Shown here piece after piece: positions 628 to 13,068 of a DNA stretch of 64,000 nt. The position numbers were made by a program, and so were the translations under genes. The stretch lies in NCBI GenBank assembly GCA_030603385.1, contig JAUVXW010000009.1, forward strand, positions 32,001 to 96,000, in the 5' to 3' direction. The notes beneath the pieces are model-generated. The model did not search any database. It was not told the origin of the DNA and saw only the letters and a list, made by a program, of their open reading frames with translations. Position 1 is the stretch's first letter. Every line of letters begins with the position of its first letter. The stretch comes from Promethearchaeota archaeon. Its GTDB lineage: Archaea; Asgardarchaeota; Lokiarchaeia; Sigyniarchaeales; SOKP01.

Positions 628-2094
628 TTGACTAATAACAACTCTAAATCGAAAAGGAAACAATCCGATAAAGAAAACGATGATAATAACAAATCCGATT
701 TAATTAAGGCAATTGTTTTAAGTATATTCGATGAAAAGGGTCCAGCACCTAGAGTTGTTTGGCCCATTGATTTAGATGAGAAAGCTGGGCTTTTAATTGC
801 AATGAAAACCATCAGTTTACTCATGGGTGATTCAGTTTATCAAGATTCACAAGGTTCAGATGTAGGGGTTAATTATTTTGGTATATTACCGTTTCCAGAC
901 TTAAAATTAAATGGTTTAACATATTTTTTTCTCATTCCTGAAGAAAAAGCGCGTGGTCAAGCTCTGGCAGCTACTATTACCGTATTAATCAACGAGGATG
1001 ATAGAGTCTTTTTTTATGAGAATATGAAATATTTGAGAATTATTATTGATAAGACCGCTAGCCAGATACAAACAGACAAAGAATTTGATGATCATAAAAG
1101 AATTATGGACGAAATAAGAGATGAATTGTTTGAATTCACTAAGGACTTAAAAGATCCTTTTTCAGTGAGGAGACAAATCAAGGTACTATTAACAGGATTA
1201 GATAAAGCAGGGAAATCAAGTTTTTTAATGGGAATAAGAAGGAGATATTCAGAAATTATAAAGGCTTTACCTACTAGAGGTGTTGAAAGATCAGAGGAAA
1301 ACATTTTTGAAGAGCAAAATTCTGTAATCTCACTTTGGGATCTAGGTGGTCAAAAACAATATCGAGAGAGATTTCTTGAACAAAGTAAACTTTATTTGTA
1401 TAACGTAGATTTAATCTTCTTTTTTGTTGATATTCAAGATGTTGAGAGGATTCAGGAAGCCCTAGAACTTTTTAGGAAGATTACAGATTCTTTAATTGAC
1501 TTGGATGAATTCCCTCCTATTGTAGTTTGCTTAAATAAATTTGATCCAGATCTAAAGGGGTCAAAAGAAATTTTCAAGAATTTGGAGATAATTGCAGATG
1601 AAATTGAGAAGAATTCTGATAGATTTTTAATTAAAATTTTCCAAACTAGTATTTTCAATCACTGGAGCTTAATAAGCGCATATTCCTTTGGTCTTTCACA
1701 ATTAAGTCCTAATCGAGAATTATTCAGGAATCAATTAAAAAAGTTTGCTAAGAAAACAAATTCAGACGCAATATTGTTATTAAATGAAAATGGAATAATT
1801 TTATCTAATTATTCTAAAGATGAAGTTTCTGAAAGAGTATTTGAAATTTCTGCCCCTCATTTTCAAGAACTCTATAAGACTTTCAAAGAGTTTAAAATTT
1901 TACAACAAGATTTTTTAATATCTTCAGGAATCGCTGATGACTCTAAAAAAATAATATTTAAAAAAATTCAGGTCGAAAAATATAATCTATACTTGTTAAT
2001 GTTTATTGAGAAATCTCACCAAATTGAAATGATAGAGAAAAATTTACCAGATTTCTCTAAAAACCTTATAGATATAATTCATACATATATTTAA
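628..2094 (+). CDS. Longin/uDENN domain + Rag/Arf-like small GTPase + C-terminal roadblock-like domain fusion
   Basis: G1 GLDKAGKS, G2 PTRG, G3 DLGGQ, G4 NKFD, G5 TSIF. N-terminal SIFDEKGPAPRVVWP and EEKARG motifs. C-terminal LSPNRELFRNQLKKFAKKTNSDAILLLNENGIILS resembles the Rag roadblock domain. Confidence 0.85.
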   Translation: MTNNNSKSKRKQSDKENDDNNKSDLIKAIVLSIFDEKGPAPRVVWPIDLDEKAGLLIAMKTISLLMGDSVYQDSQGSDVGVNYFGILPFPDLKLNGLTYFFLIPEEKARGQALAATITVLINEDDRVFFYENMKYLRIIIDKTASQIQTDKEFDDHKRIMDEIRDELFEFTKDLKDPFSVRRQIKVLLTGLDKAGKSSFLMGIRRRYSEIIKALPTRGVERSEENIFEEQNSVISLWDLGGQKQYRERFLEQSKLYLYNVDLIFFFVDIQDVERIQEALELFRKITDSLIDLDEFPPIVVCLNKFDPDLKGSKEIFKNLEIIADEIEKNSDRFLIKIFQTSIFNHWSLISAYSFGLSQLSPNRELFRNQLKKFAKKTNSDAILLLNENGIILSNYSKDEVSERVFEISAPHFQELYKTFKEFKILQQDFLISSGIADDSKKIIFKKIQVEKYNLYLLMFIEKSHQIEMIEKNLPDFSKNLIDIIHTYI

Positions 2095-2123
2095 TAAAAA
2101 AAATAAAATTTATTTAGTTTTTA

Positions 2124-3368
2124 TTAATATCCTCCTTTGTTTCTCCTAATCCTTGTTATGAGAATTATTGTAATTAATACAGCAGCTATTCCAATTCCAA
2201 TAAACACAAGAAATAATAATGGAAATTGCTCTAAAGGTAACAAGTTTGACTCTATAACAGTTATATCAACGTCGTATCTATAAGTAAAGCTTGCTGATGG
2301 TGGATAGCCAAAGATGGGATTTCCGAACTCACTTACAGTGAAGTAAGGAGGAAGGAAGAAATTCGCCCCTACATTTAGATTAAAGCGAAGAAAATCAATT
2401 CTATTAAAATAGTTTGTTCCCCAAGTAGGATCACAAACAATCCACCCTATATTTGGAACGTAATATTCAACCCAAGCATGTCCTAACATGTTACTGGCTA
2501 ATTCTGAAACGTAGAAGCTCCATGAGTTACCCACCTGTGGTCGTAAAGCGGGATTATTAGATATTAAGAATCCTGTTACTTTACGAGCAGGAATATCTTG
2601 TATCCGTAATAGTGTAATCATCAAACTCGAATATTCACTACAGTCTCCTTGTGAGTTGTTATAAGCCCATGAAGCACCCATTTCCTGAAGTGGTAAACCT
2701 CCATTATAATTTAGGTTATTATAAACCCAATTATATATTTTTTCCGCTTTTTCAATAACACTTATATTTGTTGGGCCAACTATGCTATTAGATAAAAAAA
2801 TTAAATCTGGATCATCTCGCTCATAATAAGGTTCTGTATTATTACAGTATAAATCAAAAATCTCGTCTGACTTATCATATATACCAATATCTGTTTCTTG
2901 TATGTCTTGAAAACTGATAGCGTTTAATTCAATTATATAATGTTGGCTTAATGTTACTTTTCCTTCAGCCCCTAAAGTTGCATTGAATAAATCATATGTA
3001 TTATTAAATTGGTCATTGTGTCCCATATCAAGTACTGAATATCCTGTAATACTGTTATATAAAATCTCGCTCTCTTGATAAGGTGGTGTATATTGAGTCT
3101 CTGTAACGTTTGGCATCCTATTATTTAGTCGTGCAAATTTAAAATAATAATTATTGCCAGGACCTGATTGATGAGTCAAAGTAAAATTGATCTCAACATT
3201 ATATTTTACACTTTGAGTAATGTCATAATTAGAAACACCATAATCTGGTGATGAAATGAAAGGGTTGGTATACGAAACAGTAGAAAGTAATGGGGCTGTT
3301 GAATAGGCTGAAAATGCTATAGGGAAGAAAAGCAAATATATTAAAGCAAACTTAGCTTTAGCTTTCAT
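2124..3368 (-). CDS. Membrane-anchored transglutaminase-like domain protein
   Basis: Signal peptide; catalytic triad motifs GDCSEYS, HAWVEYY and DPTW; C-terminal TM helix with basic tail. Confidence 0.85.
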   Translation of the reverse strand: MKAKAKFALIYLLFFPIAFSAYSTAPLLSTVSYTNPFISSPDYGVSNYDITQSVKYNVEINFTLTHQSGPGNNYYFKFARLNNRMPNVTETQYTPPYQESEILYNSITGYSVLDMGHNDQFNNTYDLFNATLGAEGKVTLSQHYIIELNAISFQDIQETDIGIYDKSDEIFDLYCNNTEPYYERDDPDLIFLSNSIVGPTNISVIEKAEKIYNWVYNNLNYNGGLPLQEMGASWAYNNSQGDCSEYSSLMITLLRIQDIPARKVTGFLISNNPALRPQVGNSWSFYVSELASNMLGHAWVEYYVPNIGWIVCDPTWGTNYFNRIDFLRFNLNVGANFFLPPYFTVSEFGNPIFGYPPSASFTYRYDVDITVIESNLLPLEQFPLLFLVFIGIGIAAVLITIILITRIRRNKGGY

Positions 3369-3569: not shown

Positions 3570-4205
3570 ATTATATACAAAACGTTTTTAATCGATGGGG
3601 ATAATGGAATTTCGATTTTTGAAGCAACCTTTAAAGAATTAAAAAAAATTCAAGACCAAATATTAACTGGATTTTTTAATGCTATTAATAAAACAATTGA
3701 CGCGATACAAGAATCTATGGCAAAGGGAAGACGAGTAAATGAGATGAATAGAGTTGTAGAATCTGAAGATTCAACAATTTTTATATATTATCATCCTTTA
3801 TCTAGAGTTCTTTTTTGTTCGATTTCAGATGCTGATGATGATACAGAGAAAATAAAAGAAGTAATTCATAAAATTGCCAATAGATTTTGGAAAAAACACC
3901 AATCGGATCTTAAAGTTTTCAGAACTACAAATGAAAAAAGTAGGTTCCAGACTTTAAATGCAGATATTGAGAATCTTACCATAGGAGGAAAAATAGCAGA
4001 GGTATTTCCGAAATTACTTATTGCTAAAAACGTATTAGAAAAAGTTTTGACTATGGGAATGATTAATAATTTTGAATTTCAAGTTGCATTGTTATGCACA
4101 GGGAAAAATTCTCCACTGAAGATTTCGAGAAATCTACATAAAAAAAGAAATGAAATCTATGATGCTCTTAAGAAATTAGAAAATTTGGATATTATAAGGA
4201 TGTAA
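3570..4205 (+). CDS. Longin-domain protein with C-terminal winged HTH; probably starts upstream of the tracked ATG (3717), at ATT/ATA
   Basis: Frame is open from 3546 and adds IIYKTFLIDGDNGISIFEATF...DQILTGFFNAI (longin N-terminal strands and helix). C-terminal SPLKISRNLHKKRNEIYDALKKLENLDII is wHTH-like. Confidence 0.65.
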   Translation: MIYKTFLIDGDNGISIFEATFKELKKIQDQILTGFFNAINKTIDAIQESMAKGRRVNEMNRVVESEDSTIFIYYHPLSRVLFCSISDADDDTEKIKEVIHKIANRFWKKHQSDLKVFRTTNEKSRFQTLNADIENLTIGGKIAEVFPKLLIAKNVLEKVLTMGMINNFEFQVALLCTGKNSPLKISRNLHKKRNEIYDALKKLENLDIIRM

Positions 4206-8898: not shown

Positions 8899-11800
8899 TT
8901 AAGGATTAATCGGTATAATCAATTTTCGCTCTATCAACGTTTCAATGGCTACAATTATGAGATCCTTATTATCTTCACTAACCAATTCAATTACGTCATT
9001 TAAATTAACAATATTATTGTTTCTTTTTGATGCTGATTGGATTACATTTAATGTGCGGATCTCTAGTTTGTCTAAGTTTTTCTCTTTTCGCAATTTAAGA
9101 AGATCGATCTTTCCAGATAATCTGAAAGAGCCTTTATAGTGTAATTCAAAGTACTCGTTTATTATTGTAGGGACTAATTCTTCAAACAGGTCTAAGGAAC
9201 CATCCCAATTTTCTAATTCTATAGATAATTTTAGATTTAAGGCTAAAACCAAATTAGATACTTGACTTTTTAACCTTTCAGAAGACTTTTCTCTTAGGAT
9301 AAATACAGCTCTTACATCATCTTTATCTGCGATTAAACAGTAGAAATACTTGAAATCCAACTCAATAATCTTCTCAATACCATAGCTCTTTGTAGATTTC
9401 TTTGATTCTACGGAACTTATTTCTTGTTCAGAAAACTCTTCTCCAACAGTTGTTATTGCTTGAATAAATCCTGAGAATAATTCCTTCTTGTGTTTTTCTA
9501 AAATCGAATAGCTCTGCGAATAAATAGGTATCCCGCTCAATTTATGTATTATTACAATAGCCTGAATATTTTTGAGGTCCTTAAATCTTTGTGTTTTTGC
9601 TAACAATTCTGCTTCTTTCTTCCTCTTTCTTGGTAGAATTACATAAGACCTTAAACTTAATATTCCTAAAGCACTAACTATGCTTATTAATACACCTATA
9701 ATTATCCATAACAACAGGCCTGGGAATTCATTTCCACCAACAACAGGTTCACCGATTACAACAATAAATGAGTATATAGTTGATTTGTAGATTGAACCAT
9801 TAGGTGTAATTATTAAATCAAATTTATAATTACCTTCTAATCCTTCTGGCAATTTTATATCTACTTCATAAGTTCCAGGAGCGGTCTGATTGATAGTGCC
9901 TATACCATAATCCCATGTATATTTTATAGTCGCGTCTTCGATGATATTTAGTGTTTTATTATCTAGTAATTGAATTTGAATATTTATTGTTTCTCCTACT
10001 TCAGCATTTATTGTGTCTTCAAAACTAATTGGATCTACCTTTATTTCAATCTGATCTATCAAAAGTTGAAAACTGAAAGTTGCATTTTTATAATTAGGAT
10101 GTTCAAATTGAAGGTAAACTAAATTAAACCATAAAGAAAAATCCTCCTGTGAACATATAATTGTTGTATTATACCAGAAATTGGGGTTTATTGTCAAATT
10201 CTTTTGGAAAGCACCGCTTATACAAGTTATTACACCCCCGGTTAAATATTCTGCGTCTATATTTGAGAGTGCCCTTACTGATATATTAAGCTCTTCGTTG
10301 AAAACTGTTCCTAATAATGCATTTTCATTAATTTGTTGAGAATTGATATAAGCTAATAAATTTACAGATTGTTTTATCATCTCAAATTCATAAATATAAT
10401 ATTGAGGTTCGTAAGCTACTGCAGAAAAATTAATCCTCAACTGATAACTACCAATATCGTCAATAAAAAGGGTACTAAATTCTATTTCATATACACCGTT
10501 TCCAGGATTTTTAATTGTATATAAAGATTCATTACTGATGCTGACATTGACTAATGCTCCATCAATCCCATCGCCGTCATAATCTGAAAACTTAAATCTT
10601 ATAGTACTATTAGCATGTAATTCGATCTCATTATCTGATTCAAGAACTTGTATATTTGTTTCTTCACCTAAGTTAATTTCTAATGTAATATTACTCGTAA
10701 TAAATCCAATTTTTGAAGAATTAATAATTATATTATGCAATCCTCGTGATATTAAGTCCCCAGTAAATAACGTTGTTTCATAAATACCTAATCCTGAATC
10801 TGTAAAATAACGAGTCCCATCAGACCAGTTATAAGATACAATCGCATTGGGTATTGTAAAATTATTTTCAAAATCTTTTAAGAGAATCCTTACTGGAATA
10901 ATATCACCGACAAATCCCTCAGTTCTTAAGTCTAACTCTGCGTCATCTGGTTTTAATAAAGTTAGTGAAGTCTGATGGTTTACAATAAGGTCGGATTTAA
11001 CTCCACCAATGGCAGTTCCATTACTCCAAAATATCGTATAATTATATTGACCTCCTATTGAATTCAAGGCTGTGAACGTGATCTCAGAAAATAATACAGT
11101 TCCATTAGAAAGAGGATTTATAGCTTCTTCAAACCAAATTGAACCAGTTGGGTCATAGATGGTTAAATTTACCATAGTTAAAGCTAAATTTGGAGGAATT
11201 TCATTACTATTATTAATTTGGGTTCTAATTTTGGTAGATTCACCTGTAACAAATGATGATTCTACCCATTGACCTTGTTTAAACATTTTAGTGTTTGAAC
11301 TGTTAAGGTAATTAGGTGATGTTGCTACGAATGACCACCAACCAGGAAATATCGCGAATGTAGTATTGATTGTTAAATAAGTTTCCCCATTACTCCCACC
11401 CTCATAAGAAACTGATTGTAATGTAGGATCTAAAACTGAAGTAATTTCCCCGTTTGTCGGCTTAGTAATTGTAAATTCAAAATCAGTATATTGAGATGGC
11501 ATATAAAAATTATGAGTAAACTCCCAATAAACTGATCCATTTTCCAAAATTGTATAACTGATCCCTTCTTGAACTGTTTGTCCAATTTTAGTTGTTGTAT
11601 CATGATACCCATACAAGAACGTATCTAATTCAAATTCTAAAGATGGAGATGCTGTTTGGATAGTTAAAACTACAGGATTATATTCCCATTTTCCAGTAAA
11701 ATTTCGAGAAGAATGCCCCCATTGATTCCCATCAGAAAGGATTTCACTGTTTATAGTAAGGTTTATATCACTTTGGGTTGAATTAGCAAGTGTCGTCAGT

Positions 11801-13068
11801 TCTAAAGAGACGTTATCAAACCTGAAAATTTGTTGAAATTGATCCTCAAAACCACTATACGTAATCGAAGCACCACTCATTATGCCAATTGAAATATTAA
11901 ACTCATTATTATTTTTAATATTTTCAAAAATATTTGAGGTATTTAACCATAAATCCATATTTATCTTTCCAGTATGGTGCCATGTTTGCCTCCCTGCGTC
12001 TGCAACATCTCCGATACCTTTTGAATATACTTTTTTATTATTAATTTCACAATATATAAAATTTTCATTAGAATCCATAGCAAATTCAGCGTAATAATCG
12101 AAACTAATATAAGCATCAATAACAGCACCTCTGGGGATGGTTATATTTTGATATAATTCTACAAAATCTCCTTCATAATAAACCGTATCATATTGTGGTA
12201 GGTCAGGGGAGATTTCTGAATATAATGCCACAAACATACTATCTGCACCCCCAACATTACCCGCTCCATAATTAGTCATTGTAGAAGAATTTGCATTAAA
12301 TCCCCATGATGGTGAATTCACATAGAAGTTAGAGCTCGTATTAATAAACTCATAATAGTCGATTTTATATCCCCAATACTCGTATAAACCGTCTGATTCA
12401 AAGTAGAAATTTAATTCACTTCCCCAAATCCAAGGTGAATAATAGTCAGATTTAAATCCTGTTTCAGTATAGATTATTGTATTATTTTCATTTTCAATAA
12501 AGAAATAATCCCAACTATCCTCAAATTCTAACCGCGTAAAATGAACTCTCATCGCTATTGTTCCAGGATTCGCAGTAATTGAGTCTAGAGTCTGAGGTCG
12601 ACCTCTATTTGGCTGATAATCATGAGGACTTTCTTTACCTGAAACATTTAATCTATAAATGGTAATTGGTAAAAAATCGCTATTATTAACCCACTCCCTA
12701 GTATCTTGTATACTTCGTATTGAATTCTGAATTTCTGAAACTTTCCAATCATGGACTTCATCTAAATAATATGTTAAATTCACTTCTTCCAGATTTGATG
12801 CTGAGATATCTTGATTAAATTTATAAAGATTTCCAGTATCAGTAATATTCAAAGATGGTTCTAATCCTTGGAACAAGATAGCACCACCATTAGCGCCGTT
12901 TAATTCATGTTTAAATATCTTCTTATCATTAATATAATCGTTATCATCAGAGTGGAAGGTTATATTTAAAATAGAATTAAAAAATAACAGTGAAACCAAT
13001 ATCATTGAAATAATAGACAGACAATTTATTTTCTTCTTCATTGAAGAAATCTTTTTATTACATTTCAT
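8899..13068 (-). CDS. Large single-pass surface protein: CUB-like and Ig-like ectodomain, TM helix, cytoplasmic longin-like domain
   Basis: Signal peptide; CUB-like MRVHFTRLEFEDSWDY...FYFESDG...WGYKID; GxY beta repeats; TM LLWIIIGVLISIVSALGIL; cytoplasmic IVIIHKLSGIPIYS...LFSGFIQAITTVGEE. Confidence 0.75.
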   Translation of the reverse strand: MKCNKKISSMKKKINCLSIISMILVSLLFFNSILNITFHSDDNDYINDKKIFKHELNGANGGAILFQGLEPSLNITDTGNLYKFNQDISASNLEEVNLTYYLDEVHDWKVSEIQNSIRSIQDTREWVNNSDFLPITIYRLNVSGKESPHDYQPNRGRPQTLDSITANPGTIAMRVHFTRLEFEDSWDYFFIENENNTIIYTETGFKSDYYSPWIWGSELNFYFESDGLYEYWGYKIDYYEFINTSSNFYVNSPSWGFNANSSTMTNYGAGNVGGADSMFVALYSEISPDLPQYDTVYYEGDFVELYQNITIPRGAVIDAYISFDYYAEFAMDSNENFIYCEINNKKVYSKGIGDVADAGRQTWHHTGKINMDLWLNTSNIFENIKNNNEFNISIGIMSGASITYSGFEDQFQQIFRFDNVSLELTTLANSTQSDINLTINSEILSDGNQWGHSSRNFTGKWEYNPVVLTIQTASPSLEFELDTFLYGYHDTTTKIGQTVQEGISYTILENGSVYWEFTHNFYMPSQYTDFEFTITKPTNGEITSVLDPTLQSVSYEGGSNGETYLTINTTFAIFPGWWSFVATSPNYLNSSNTKMFKQGQWVESSFVTGESTKIRTQINNSNEIPPNLALTMVNLTIYDPTGSIWFEEAINPLSNGTVLFSEITFTALNSIGGQYNYTIFWSNGTAIGGVKSDLIVNHQTSLTLLKPDDAELDLRTEGFVGDIIPVRILLKDFENNFTIPNAIVSYNWSDGTRYFTDSGLGIYETTLFTGDLISRGLHNIIINSSKIGFITSNITLEINLGEETNIQVLESDNEIELHANSTIRFKFSDYDGDGIDGALVNVSISNESLYTIKNPGNGVYEIEFSTLFIDDIGSYQLRINFSAVAYEPQYYIYEFEMIKQSVNLLAYINSQQINENALLGTVFNEELNISVRALSNIDAEYLTGGVITCISGAFQKNLTINPNFWYNTTIICSQEDFSLWFNLVYLQFEHPNYKNATFSFQLLIDQIEIKVDPISFEDTINAEVGETINIQIQLLDNKTLNIIEDATIKYTWDYGIGTINQTAPGTYEVDIKLPEGLEGNYKFDLIITPNGSIYKSTIYSFIVVIGEPVVGGNEFPGLLLWIIIGVLISIVSALGILSLRSYVILPRKRKKEAELLAKTQRFKDLKNIQAIVIIHKLSGIPIYSQSYSILEKHKKELFSGFIQAITTVGEEFSEQEISSVESKKSTKSYGIEKIIELDFKYFYCLIADKDDVRAVFILREKSSERLKSQVSNLVLALNLKLSIELENWDGSLDLFEELVPTIINEYFELHYKGSFRLSGKIDLLKLRKEKNLDKLEIRTLNVIQSASKRNNNIVNLNDVIELVSEDNKDLIIVAIETLIERKLIIPINP

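Follow-up and report, generated by a model that had tools for sequence, protein, structure and literature searches.

A Lokiarchaeial protein that joins a longin domain bearing a candidate arginine finger to a Rag-like GTPase and a roadblock domain

We examined a stretch of 64,000 nucleotides from a Promethearchaeota archaeon of the class Lokiarchaeia (GenBank assembly GCA_030603385.1, contig JAUVXW010000009.1, positions 32,001 to 96,000 of the forward strand), referred to here as the window. A gene at its positions 628-2094 encodes a protein of 488 amino acids (aa) in which a longin domain, a GTPase domain of the Rag/Gtr type and a C-terminal roadblock domain follow one another in a single chain. 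The longin domain appears to be of the kind found in the eukaryotic GTPase-activating proteins (GAPs) FLCN, SMCR8 and NPRL2, and it carries a candidate arginine finger, R109. A colinear paralogue encoded on the same contig has no conserved arginine at this place; we call the Arg-bearing proteins class A and the finger-less ones class B. From sequences and structural models, we judge the chances to be about even that the longin is a built-in GAP for the Rag-like G domain, either of its own chain or of a dimer partner. In eukaryotes, the Rag GTPases on which nutrient sensing through mTORC1 relies are turned off by GAPs with a longin domain (FLCN-FNIP and GATOR1), and the protein bears on how longins, which are usually exchange factors or scaffolds, turned into arginine-finger GAPs. 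The gene had been picked out by an earlier reading of the DNA made without database searches (the original prediction), whose 488-aa open reading frame (ORF), quoted peptide strings and R109 codon are all present.

The longin domain and its conserved motifs

Pfam gave no match above threshold in residues 25-175. An exhaustive search with residues 20-178 returned 104 representative clusters, from which a 72-sequence alignment was built for AlphaFold2 (AF2). The resulting model of residues 20-178 was of high confidence (predicted local distance difference test, pLDDT, 90.1; predicted template-modelling score, pTM, 0.87) and displayed the longin topology β-β-α-β-β-β-α-α, with β1 at residues 26-35, β2 at 38-45, α1 at 51-65, β3 at 83-89, β4 at 94-104, β5 at 112-122, α2 at 123-149 and α3 at 153-172. 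Foldseek ranked the Lokiarchaeial longin 8yqg first, followed by chains of GATOR1, Lst4, FLCN-FNIP2 and C9orf72-SMCR8 with DENND1 interspersed among them; these Protein Data Bank (PDB) matches are identified by complex and not by subunit. Structural comparison with VIA-align gave a Z score of 18.8 for 8yqg (root-mean-square deviation 2.1 Å over 141 residues), 13.4, 12.7 and 12.4 for chains of the FLCN-FNIP2 complex, 13.3 for Lst4, 12.7, 12.6, 12.0 and 10.4 for C9orf72-SMCR8 chains, 12.0 down to 9.7 for chains of GATOR1 and the yeast SEA complex, 10.5 and 9.9 for DENND1, and at most 9.3 for SNARE, TRAPP and adaptin longins (Ykt6, VAMP7, Sec22, TRAPP). Template-modelling (TM) scores in the ESM Atlas were 0.84 for archaeal longin-Ras fusions, 0.80 for a Heimdallarchaeial Folliculin-type cluster, 0.76 both for C9orf72 and for an FLCN/SMCR8-type uDENN cluster, and 0.72 for SMCR8. 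By VIA-align and the Atlas, the N-domain is structurally nearer to the longins of GAP complexes than to those of SNARE, TRAPP or adaptin proteins. The modelled fold therefore supports its placement as a longin of the FLCN/SMCR8/NPRL2 structural group, the kind that the original prediction had proposed.

At the sequence level, 28 of the 72 longin family members matched Pfam Folliculin (PF11704) at E ≤ 1, the best at 8.8e-7. A profile of the N-domain compared with PDB sequences found 8yqg only (E 3.8e-26) and did not extend to FLCN, SMCR8 or NPRL2 at E ≤ 10. The longin is followed directly by the G domain, with no DENN domain in between. In eukaryotes, a DENN domain stands after the longin in FLCN, FNIP, SMCR8 and C9orf72 and is absent from Lst7 and NPRL2.

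A Gly-Pro (GP) motif, located at the end of the β1-β2 loop or the start of β2 beside the arginine finger, has been defined in FLCN, NPRL2, SMCR8 and C9orf72 and not in non-GAP longins, and the combination of this motif with the finger has been reported in Asgard 'Folliculin/SMCR8-type' longins (Traffic 2025, PMC12290439). A cryo-electron microscopy preprint on SMCR8 situates its R147, and the corresponding R164 of FLCN, in the β4-β5 loop of the longin. In our AF2 model, G38-P39 opens strand β2 and R109-G110 lies between β4 and β5, in the loop of SMCR8 R147 and FLCN R164, the residues with which the original prediction had compared the arginine. Both motifs are conserved among the class-A sequences (n=129), a set that spans full-length identities down to 31% and includes members only 31-45% identical: G38 is found in 128/129 and P39 in 129/129, and R109 and G110, the motif whose conservation the original prediction had wished to see checked, are present in all 128 orthologues that cover the loop. 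On these alignments, the conservation of the GP and RG pairs is far beyond chance. Across the 104 family representatives, GP was retained in 73 of the 79 covering the site and RG in 63 of the 95 covering the loop. R109 seems equivalent to SMCR8 R147 and FLCN R164 at the level of loop and motif. In class B (n=133 sequences), the two GP residues are kept in 131/131 and 130/131, and the β4-β5 loop is variable, with no conserved Arg-Gly.

These comparisons also bear on another interpretation, in which the longin would be a dimerisation, platform or guanine nucleotide exchange factor (GEF)-type module, comparable to those of TRAPP, Mon1-Ccz1, DENN proteins or Ragulator, and its Arg-Gly pair a structural or partner-binding element; the 488-aa protein would then combine a Rag-like switch with an additional domain for scaffolding. 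We consider this a real, if minor, possibility. Longins of the GEF DENND1 are among the structural neighbours as well, the Lokiarchaeial relative of known structure, 8yqg, is a longin dimer without the arginine, and class B keeps an equally conserved GP motif, so that the domain would have an arginine-independent function; moreover, most longin and roadblock platforms are GEFs or scaffolds (PMC10933270). However, the combination of GP and arginine is reported to be specific to GAP longins (PMC12290439), 128 orthologues keep the arginine, in a surface loop, without exception, and chains of GAP complexes score above GEF and SNARE longins in VIA-align.

The Rag-like GTPase, the roadblock domain and the paralogues

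The central region corresponds to a complete GTPase of the Rag type, as the original prediction had described it. Pfam Gtr1_RagA extends over residues 185-401 with 86.6 bits (cut-off 22), and the five G motifs, G1 GLDKAGKS (190-197), G2 T216, G3 DLGGQ (238-242), G4 NKFD (303-306) and G5 TSI (340-342), are conserved in the 129 class-A sequences, which also retain the switch II glutamine Q242. With G1-G5 and Q242 intact, the G domain is probably competent as a substrate. For residues 163-434, the top PDB sequence matches were 8yl2 (E 4e-31) and 8zla (E 5e-25); Gtr1 and RagA came next. Similarly, a profile of residues 352-488 matched the C-terminal domain of 8yl2 (1.6e-10), residues 174-272 of human RagA (7e-5), RagA roadblock domains present as isolated chains (E 4e-3) and Gtr1, which bears out the roadblock domain predicted to follow the GTPase, the module through which Rags dimerise; this fold call rests on homology because AF2 confidence is low in the region. 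Judging by its title, entry 8yl2 is the crystal structure of an oligomer formed by a related Rag-like protein from Lokiarchaeia.

Orthologues are named 'ADP-ribosylation factor-like protein' by NCBI, and Pfam Arf matches residues 172-321 with 63.3 bits, as might be expected of an ordinary Arf-like GTPase with an uninformative N-terminal extension. This is, in our opinion, barely conceivable: the Gtr1_RagA score is higher and its match reaches into the C-terminal domain, the best PDB matches across the G and C-terminal domains are Lokiarchaeial Rag-like proteins, Gtr1 and RagA, and the N-terminal region forms a conserved longin with a well-defined fold. We ruled it out on the Gtr1_RagA score, the longin fold and the homology to the RagA roadblock.

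Three paralogous longins are encoded on the same contig, up to 23 kb upstream of the 628-2094 gene (Table 1). The first is the class B protein; throughout this class G4 has the sequence SKGD, whereas the other four G motifs (G1-G3 and G5) are intact. Both classes match RagA/Gtr1, with RagC/Gtr2 none among the matches listed, so that the A/B duplication appears to be archaeal and not the RagA/RagC split. In the other two, encoded in tandem, the longin has the motifs GP/RRGG (or KRGG) and is joined to a G domain of the Ras family (Pfam Ras E 1e-46 to 1e-48), with no roadblock; this type of longin-Ras fusion (~335-360 aa) is widespread in the family. In a maximum-likelihood tree of the longin domains (quick search), grouping follows the fusion partner, with a Ras-fused clade, a roadblock-longin clade (Shimodaira-Hasegawa approximate likelihood-ratio test, SH-aLRT, 99) and a Rag-roadblock clade (84-90), within which the Arg-bearing (91) and Arg-less (88) groups are neighbours. 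Since the other clades carry the arginine, class B is more simply explained by its loss, although the moderate support of the tree makes this suggestive only.

The survey of the class comprised 121 genomes, with clear class-A orthologues defined by E values below 1e-30. Class A was found in 88 of the 102 genomes of the family (f1), in the majority of the genomes of the sister family f2 and in the only f3 genome sampled; class B was present in 93 of the 102. The f2 family, in which the related genes have N-domains 42-51% identical, includes two single-contig genomes. In about 60 genomes, from at least eight genera and two families, A and B share a contig, where 4-20 kb separates them and their strands are invariably opposite, and for many A/B orthologue pairs the records give an identical size for the longest contig, consistent with linkage. 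Nevertheless, the pairing is not obligate: class B occurs without class A in three genomes of the same genus (G093:C1, G103:C41 and G087:C44), one of them a single 3.3-Mb contig, and class A without detected class B in a few good genomes. A compensating arginine in class B of the genomes that have no class A was considered and rejected, none having been gained.

A possible self-contained switch

We propose that the 488-aa protein could be a self-contained small-GTPase switch, with a longin, a Rag/Gtr-type G domain and a roadblock dimerisation domain in one chain. R109, beside G38-P39, would insert into the nucleotide pocket of the Rag-like domain and speed up GTP hydrolysis; its target would be the G domain of the same chain or that of the partner in a roadblock-mediated dimer, and the protein would in this way time its own inactivation. 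The finger-less class B protein encoded ~10 kb away would most likely be the partner, or else a variant of the switch. The folds, motif positions, conservation, paralogy and linkage are observed, and from them we infer GAP catalysis, dimerisation and the partner. The fusion recurs with two GTPase classes within one genome and the longin clades follow the fusion partner, which points to action of the longin on the G domain joined to it rather than on a third party. Likewise, the conservation of the eight-residue junction between longin and G domain suggests a fixed geometry between the two.

Alternatively, the longin might be a GAP for a separate GTPase, such as the 326-aa Rag-like protein encoded 5 kb upstream, a Ras-like protein or an ArfR, its own G domain being a regulatory or localising switch. 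That longin-less Rag-like GTPase-roadblock gene and a 286-aa ORF do lie nearby, the eukaryotic longin GAPs target separate GTPases, and the family includes free GP/RG longins and roadblock-longin proteins. We find such a role decidedly unlikely, since the longin clades track the fused G domain, the fusion recurs with two GTPase classes, and no conserved operon with a free GTPase was found beside the 628-2094 gene.

By analogy, class B is the obvious candidate partner, as it recalls the non-catalytic member of FLCN-FNIP, NPRL2-NPRL3 and SMCR8-C9orf72, but its imperfect co-occurrence with class A argues against an obligate pair. Among these complexes, FLCN-FNIP targets RagC/D, GATOR1 (through NPRL2-NPRL3) RagA/B, and SMCR8-C9orf72 Arf/Rab. 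A more elaborate arrangement, which we regard as rather unlikely, would be a heterodimer of A and B held by the roadblock and longin domains, in which the RagA/RagC and FLCN-FNIP (or NPRL2-NPRL3) pairs would be contained in two chains and the single finger would fire across onto one G domain. It would constitute an asymmetric, self-resetting two-GTPase switch and would reduce the Rag nucleotide-locking cycle to a minimal archaeal form.

Several points weigh against a built-in GAP. Most longins are GEFs or platforms, not GAPs, and the eukaryotic GAP longins act as heterodimers within larger complexes. The 488-aa protein matches Pfam Folliculin with 13.6 bits (E 0.061), below the cut-off of 23.3, and matches to this profile at E ≤ 1 also occur in 8 of 14 unrelated control genomes; because the single-sequence match reaches only control-genome level, the GAP-type assignment rests on fold and family. 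The equivalence of R109 and FLCN R164 is one of loop position and motif likeness. The full-length AF2 model (14-sequence alignment) has a pLDDT of 57, and of 30-47 in the roadblock, too poor to place R109 relative to a nucleotide pocket. A whole-genome scan with Pfam Folliculin was dropped as evidence, its matches being all sub-threshold (E 0.07-0.12) and the control genomes similar.

The evolutionary part of the original prediction, which saw in the gene a possible forerunner of the Rag-FLCN/GATOR1 switch, is weakened by the distribution of the fusion. The GP-longin family occurs in 71 of the 151 Asgard genomes sampled, in which GP longins that are free or have other fusion partners are more widespread than the Rag fusion, whereas longin-Rag-roadblock ORFs of 470-505 aa were found among the 151 only in families f1 and f2, that is, in one order. 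A lineage-specific fusion is therefore a simpler view than a forerunner of the eukaryotic machinery and, given its narrow distribution, the 628-2094 gene does not look directly ancestral to the eukaryotic system. Because it looks specific to one order, the fusion informs on the capabilities of Asgard longin-GTPase pairs, not on the direct ancestry of the eukaryotic machinery.

The protein resembles FLCN-FNIP, GATOR1 and SMCR8-C9orf72 in its longin fold, the GP at strand 2, the arginine of the β4-β5 loop and the association with a Rag-type GTPase, and its paralogue pair likewise comprises one finger-bearing and one finger-less member. Unlike in the eukaryotic longin GAPs, the GAP-type domain and the GTPase share one chain, there is no DENN domain and sequence similarity is sub-threshold; the gene also stands without the DEPDC5, WDR41 or Ragulator context of the eukaryotic complexes. 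Among prokaryotic systems, MglA-MglB of Myxococcus is comparable as a roadblock/longin-type platform that regulates a small GTPase, but MglB is a separate protein, a GAP of the roadblock kind that has no arginine finger (PMC10933270).

Closer relatives are known from Asgard archaea. The Lokiarchaeial proteins LokiRagO (8yl2, a GTP-bound homotetramer) and LokiRagM (8zla/9m28, a monomer) share the G domain and the roadblock C-terminal domain; unlike the 488-aa protein, they have 342 and 385 aa and no N-terminal longin. The closest solved fold, 8yqg, is the dimeric longin of a Lokiarchaeial Roadblock-Longin protein with a GPEP motif; it is fused to a roadblock only, and its arginine position reads KEPEK, with no finger. 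Our literature search found no paper on the 8yl2, 8zla, 9m28 or 8yqg structures.

Longin-GTPase-roadblock Rag-like proteins have been described in Ca. Prometheoarchaeum syntrophicum MK-D1 from AF2 models of its proteome (Tran et al. 2024, PMC10933270), longin-Arf-like GTPase fusions in Lokiarchaeum (Klinger 2016, as cited in PMC4917890), and NPRL2-like and FLCN-like longins in Asgard archaea have been noted by Liu et al. The MK-D1 proteins are alike in three-domain order and in their Rag-like/Arf-like class of G domain and, in the text available of the MK-D1 and Lokiarchaeum reports, neither mentions an FLCN-type longin, the GP motif, the arginine or an Arg-bearing/Arg-less pair. Conversely, the Asgard 'Folliculin/SMCR8-type' longins of PMC12290439 are identical in motif pair and structural positions, but that text mentions no GTPase fusion, whereas the longin of the 628-2094 gene is fused to a Rag-like GTPase and those of the tandem paralogues to Ras-like ones. 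The original prediction had left in doubt whether such a fusion was already known: the domain layout and the GP/Arg motifs have each been published (PMC10933270 and PMC12290439, respectively) and, in the text available of these papers, neither links the two. Relative to those texts, what is new is that the domain fused to Rag-like and Ras-like GTPases is itself the finger-bearing, GAP-type longin, that orthologues keep the finger without exception, and that a finger-less paralogue is conserved and linked. PMC12290439 asks whether the client GTPases of the Asgard GP/Arg longins are ArfR or Rag/Gtr, and domain fusion offers an answer: Rag-like G domains here, and Ras-like ones in the neighbouring paralogues. 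The protein also represents a small, soluble, single-chain system for the finger hypothesis, with a natural finger-less paralogue as a built-in comparison.

Gene structure and neighbourhood

Table 1 Coordinates of the 628-2094 gene, its domains and motifs, and related genes on the same contig. Positions are those of the window unless preceded by a contig (C31) or locus (L) label.
Feature	Position	Strand	Remarks
Whole gene: longin - Rag-like GTPase - roadblock, class A (Arg-bearing), 488 aa	628..2094	+	
Residues 1-24, Lys/Asn/Asp-rich N-terminal tail	628..699	+	Varies among orthologues; low model confidence
Residues 25-175, longin domain	700..1152	+	AF2 model and structural matches
G38-P39, GP motif, start of strand β2	739..744	+	
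A108-R109-G110, β4-β5 loop, candidate arginine finger	949..957	+	R109 = CGT 952-954; G110 = GGT 955-957
Residues 176-183, short conserved junction	1153..1176	+	Longin α3 to first G-domain strand; D176, P177, S179, R182
Residues 184-350, Rag/Gtr-type G domain	1177..1677	+	G1 1195-1218, G3 1339-1353, G4 1534-1545, G5 1645-1653
Residues 351-488, C-terminal roadblock domain	1678..2091	+	Homologous to RagA/Gtr1 C-terminal domain
Class B paralogue, 501 aa, colinear	C31:20980-22485 (L003:523-2025)	-	33% full-length identity; ~10 kb upstream of window start
Tandem longin-Ras fusions, 342 and 347 aa	C31:9909-10937, 11099-12142 (L002:910-1938, 2100-3143)	-	
Longin-less Rag-like GTPase with roadblock, 326 aa	C31:27266-28246 (L006:4867-5847)	+	8yl2 type; Gtr1_RagA 89.5 bits
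ORF of 286 aa	C31:28695-29555 (L006:6296-7156)	+	Acidic, Lys-rich N-terminal half; tail roadblock-like by eye; ~450 bp downstream of 326-aa gene

The gene starts with a TTG codon at 628, preceded by an in-frame TAA at 610-612 and by GGAG at 613-616, 12 nt before the TTG, and its stop codon occupies 2092-2094. The start assignment is sound on sequence comparison, because orthologues begin at the matching position, several of them with ATG. A TTTATA box is found at 602-607, 21 nt 5' of the TTG; since this box and the GGAG are so near the start, the leader of the transcript may be very short or absent. The G+C content of the window is ~28%. The named relatives of the 488-aa protein come from metagenome-assembled genomes of Lokiarchaeia/Promethearchaeota, and near-identical DNA was found in marine-sediment and cold-seep metagenomes. 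The longin region of one orthologue (G081:C154:3421-3921, minus strand) contains one in-frame TAG, which could reflect an error of sequencing, a pseudogene or recoding of the codon.

Metatranscriptome contigs from three studies align over parts of 757-1655 with 95-99% likeness, the longest being of 846 nt with a depth of 104. Within 300-2400, the sole metatranscriptome alignment outside the gene is one 37-nt piece, and the aligned contigs begin only at 757. This hints at expression of close relatives, contigs being by nature no proof of transcription.

The genes flanking 628-2094 are unrelated to it, and no operon context, nor any conserved operon with an adjoining free GTPase, was found there. 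Upstream lies the end of a 599-aa ORF. Downstream, at 2124-3368 on the minus strand, a convergent gene separated by a 29-bp gap encodes a 414-aa transglutaminase-like membrane protein, which has a transglutaminase core and hydrophobic segments at both termini. Farther upstream on the contig, between the paralogues, the 286-aa ORF that follows the 326-aa Rag-like gene gave no match in Pfam.

Two other proteins of the window were compared with the GP-longin profile, a comparison of single sequences with a profile that has low power. No relation to the family was found for the cytoplasmic tail of a 1389-aa protein encoded at 8899-13068 on the minus strand (probability 0.1%) or for a 162-aa ORF at 3717-4205 on the plus strand (probability <1%). 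The former consists of a large extracellular part, one transmembrane helix and the tail of ~230 aa, and the latter shows a weak match to a TrmB-type winged helix at its C-terminus (E 2e-4).

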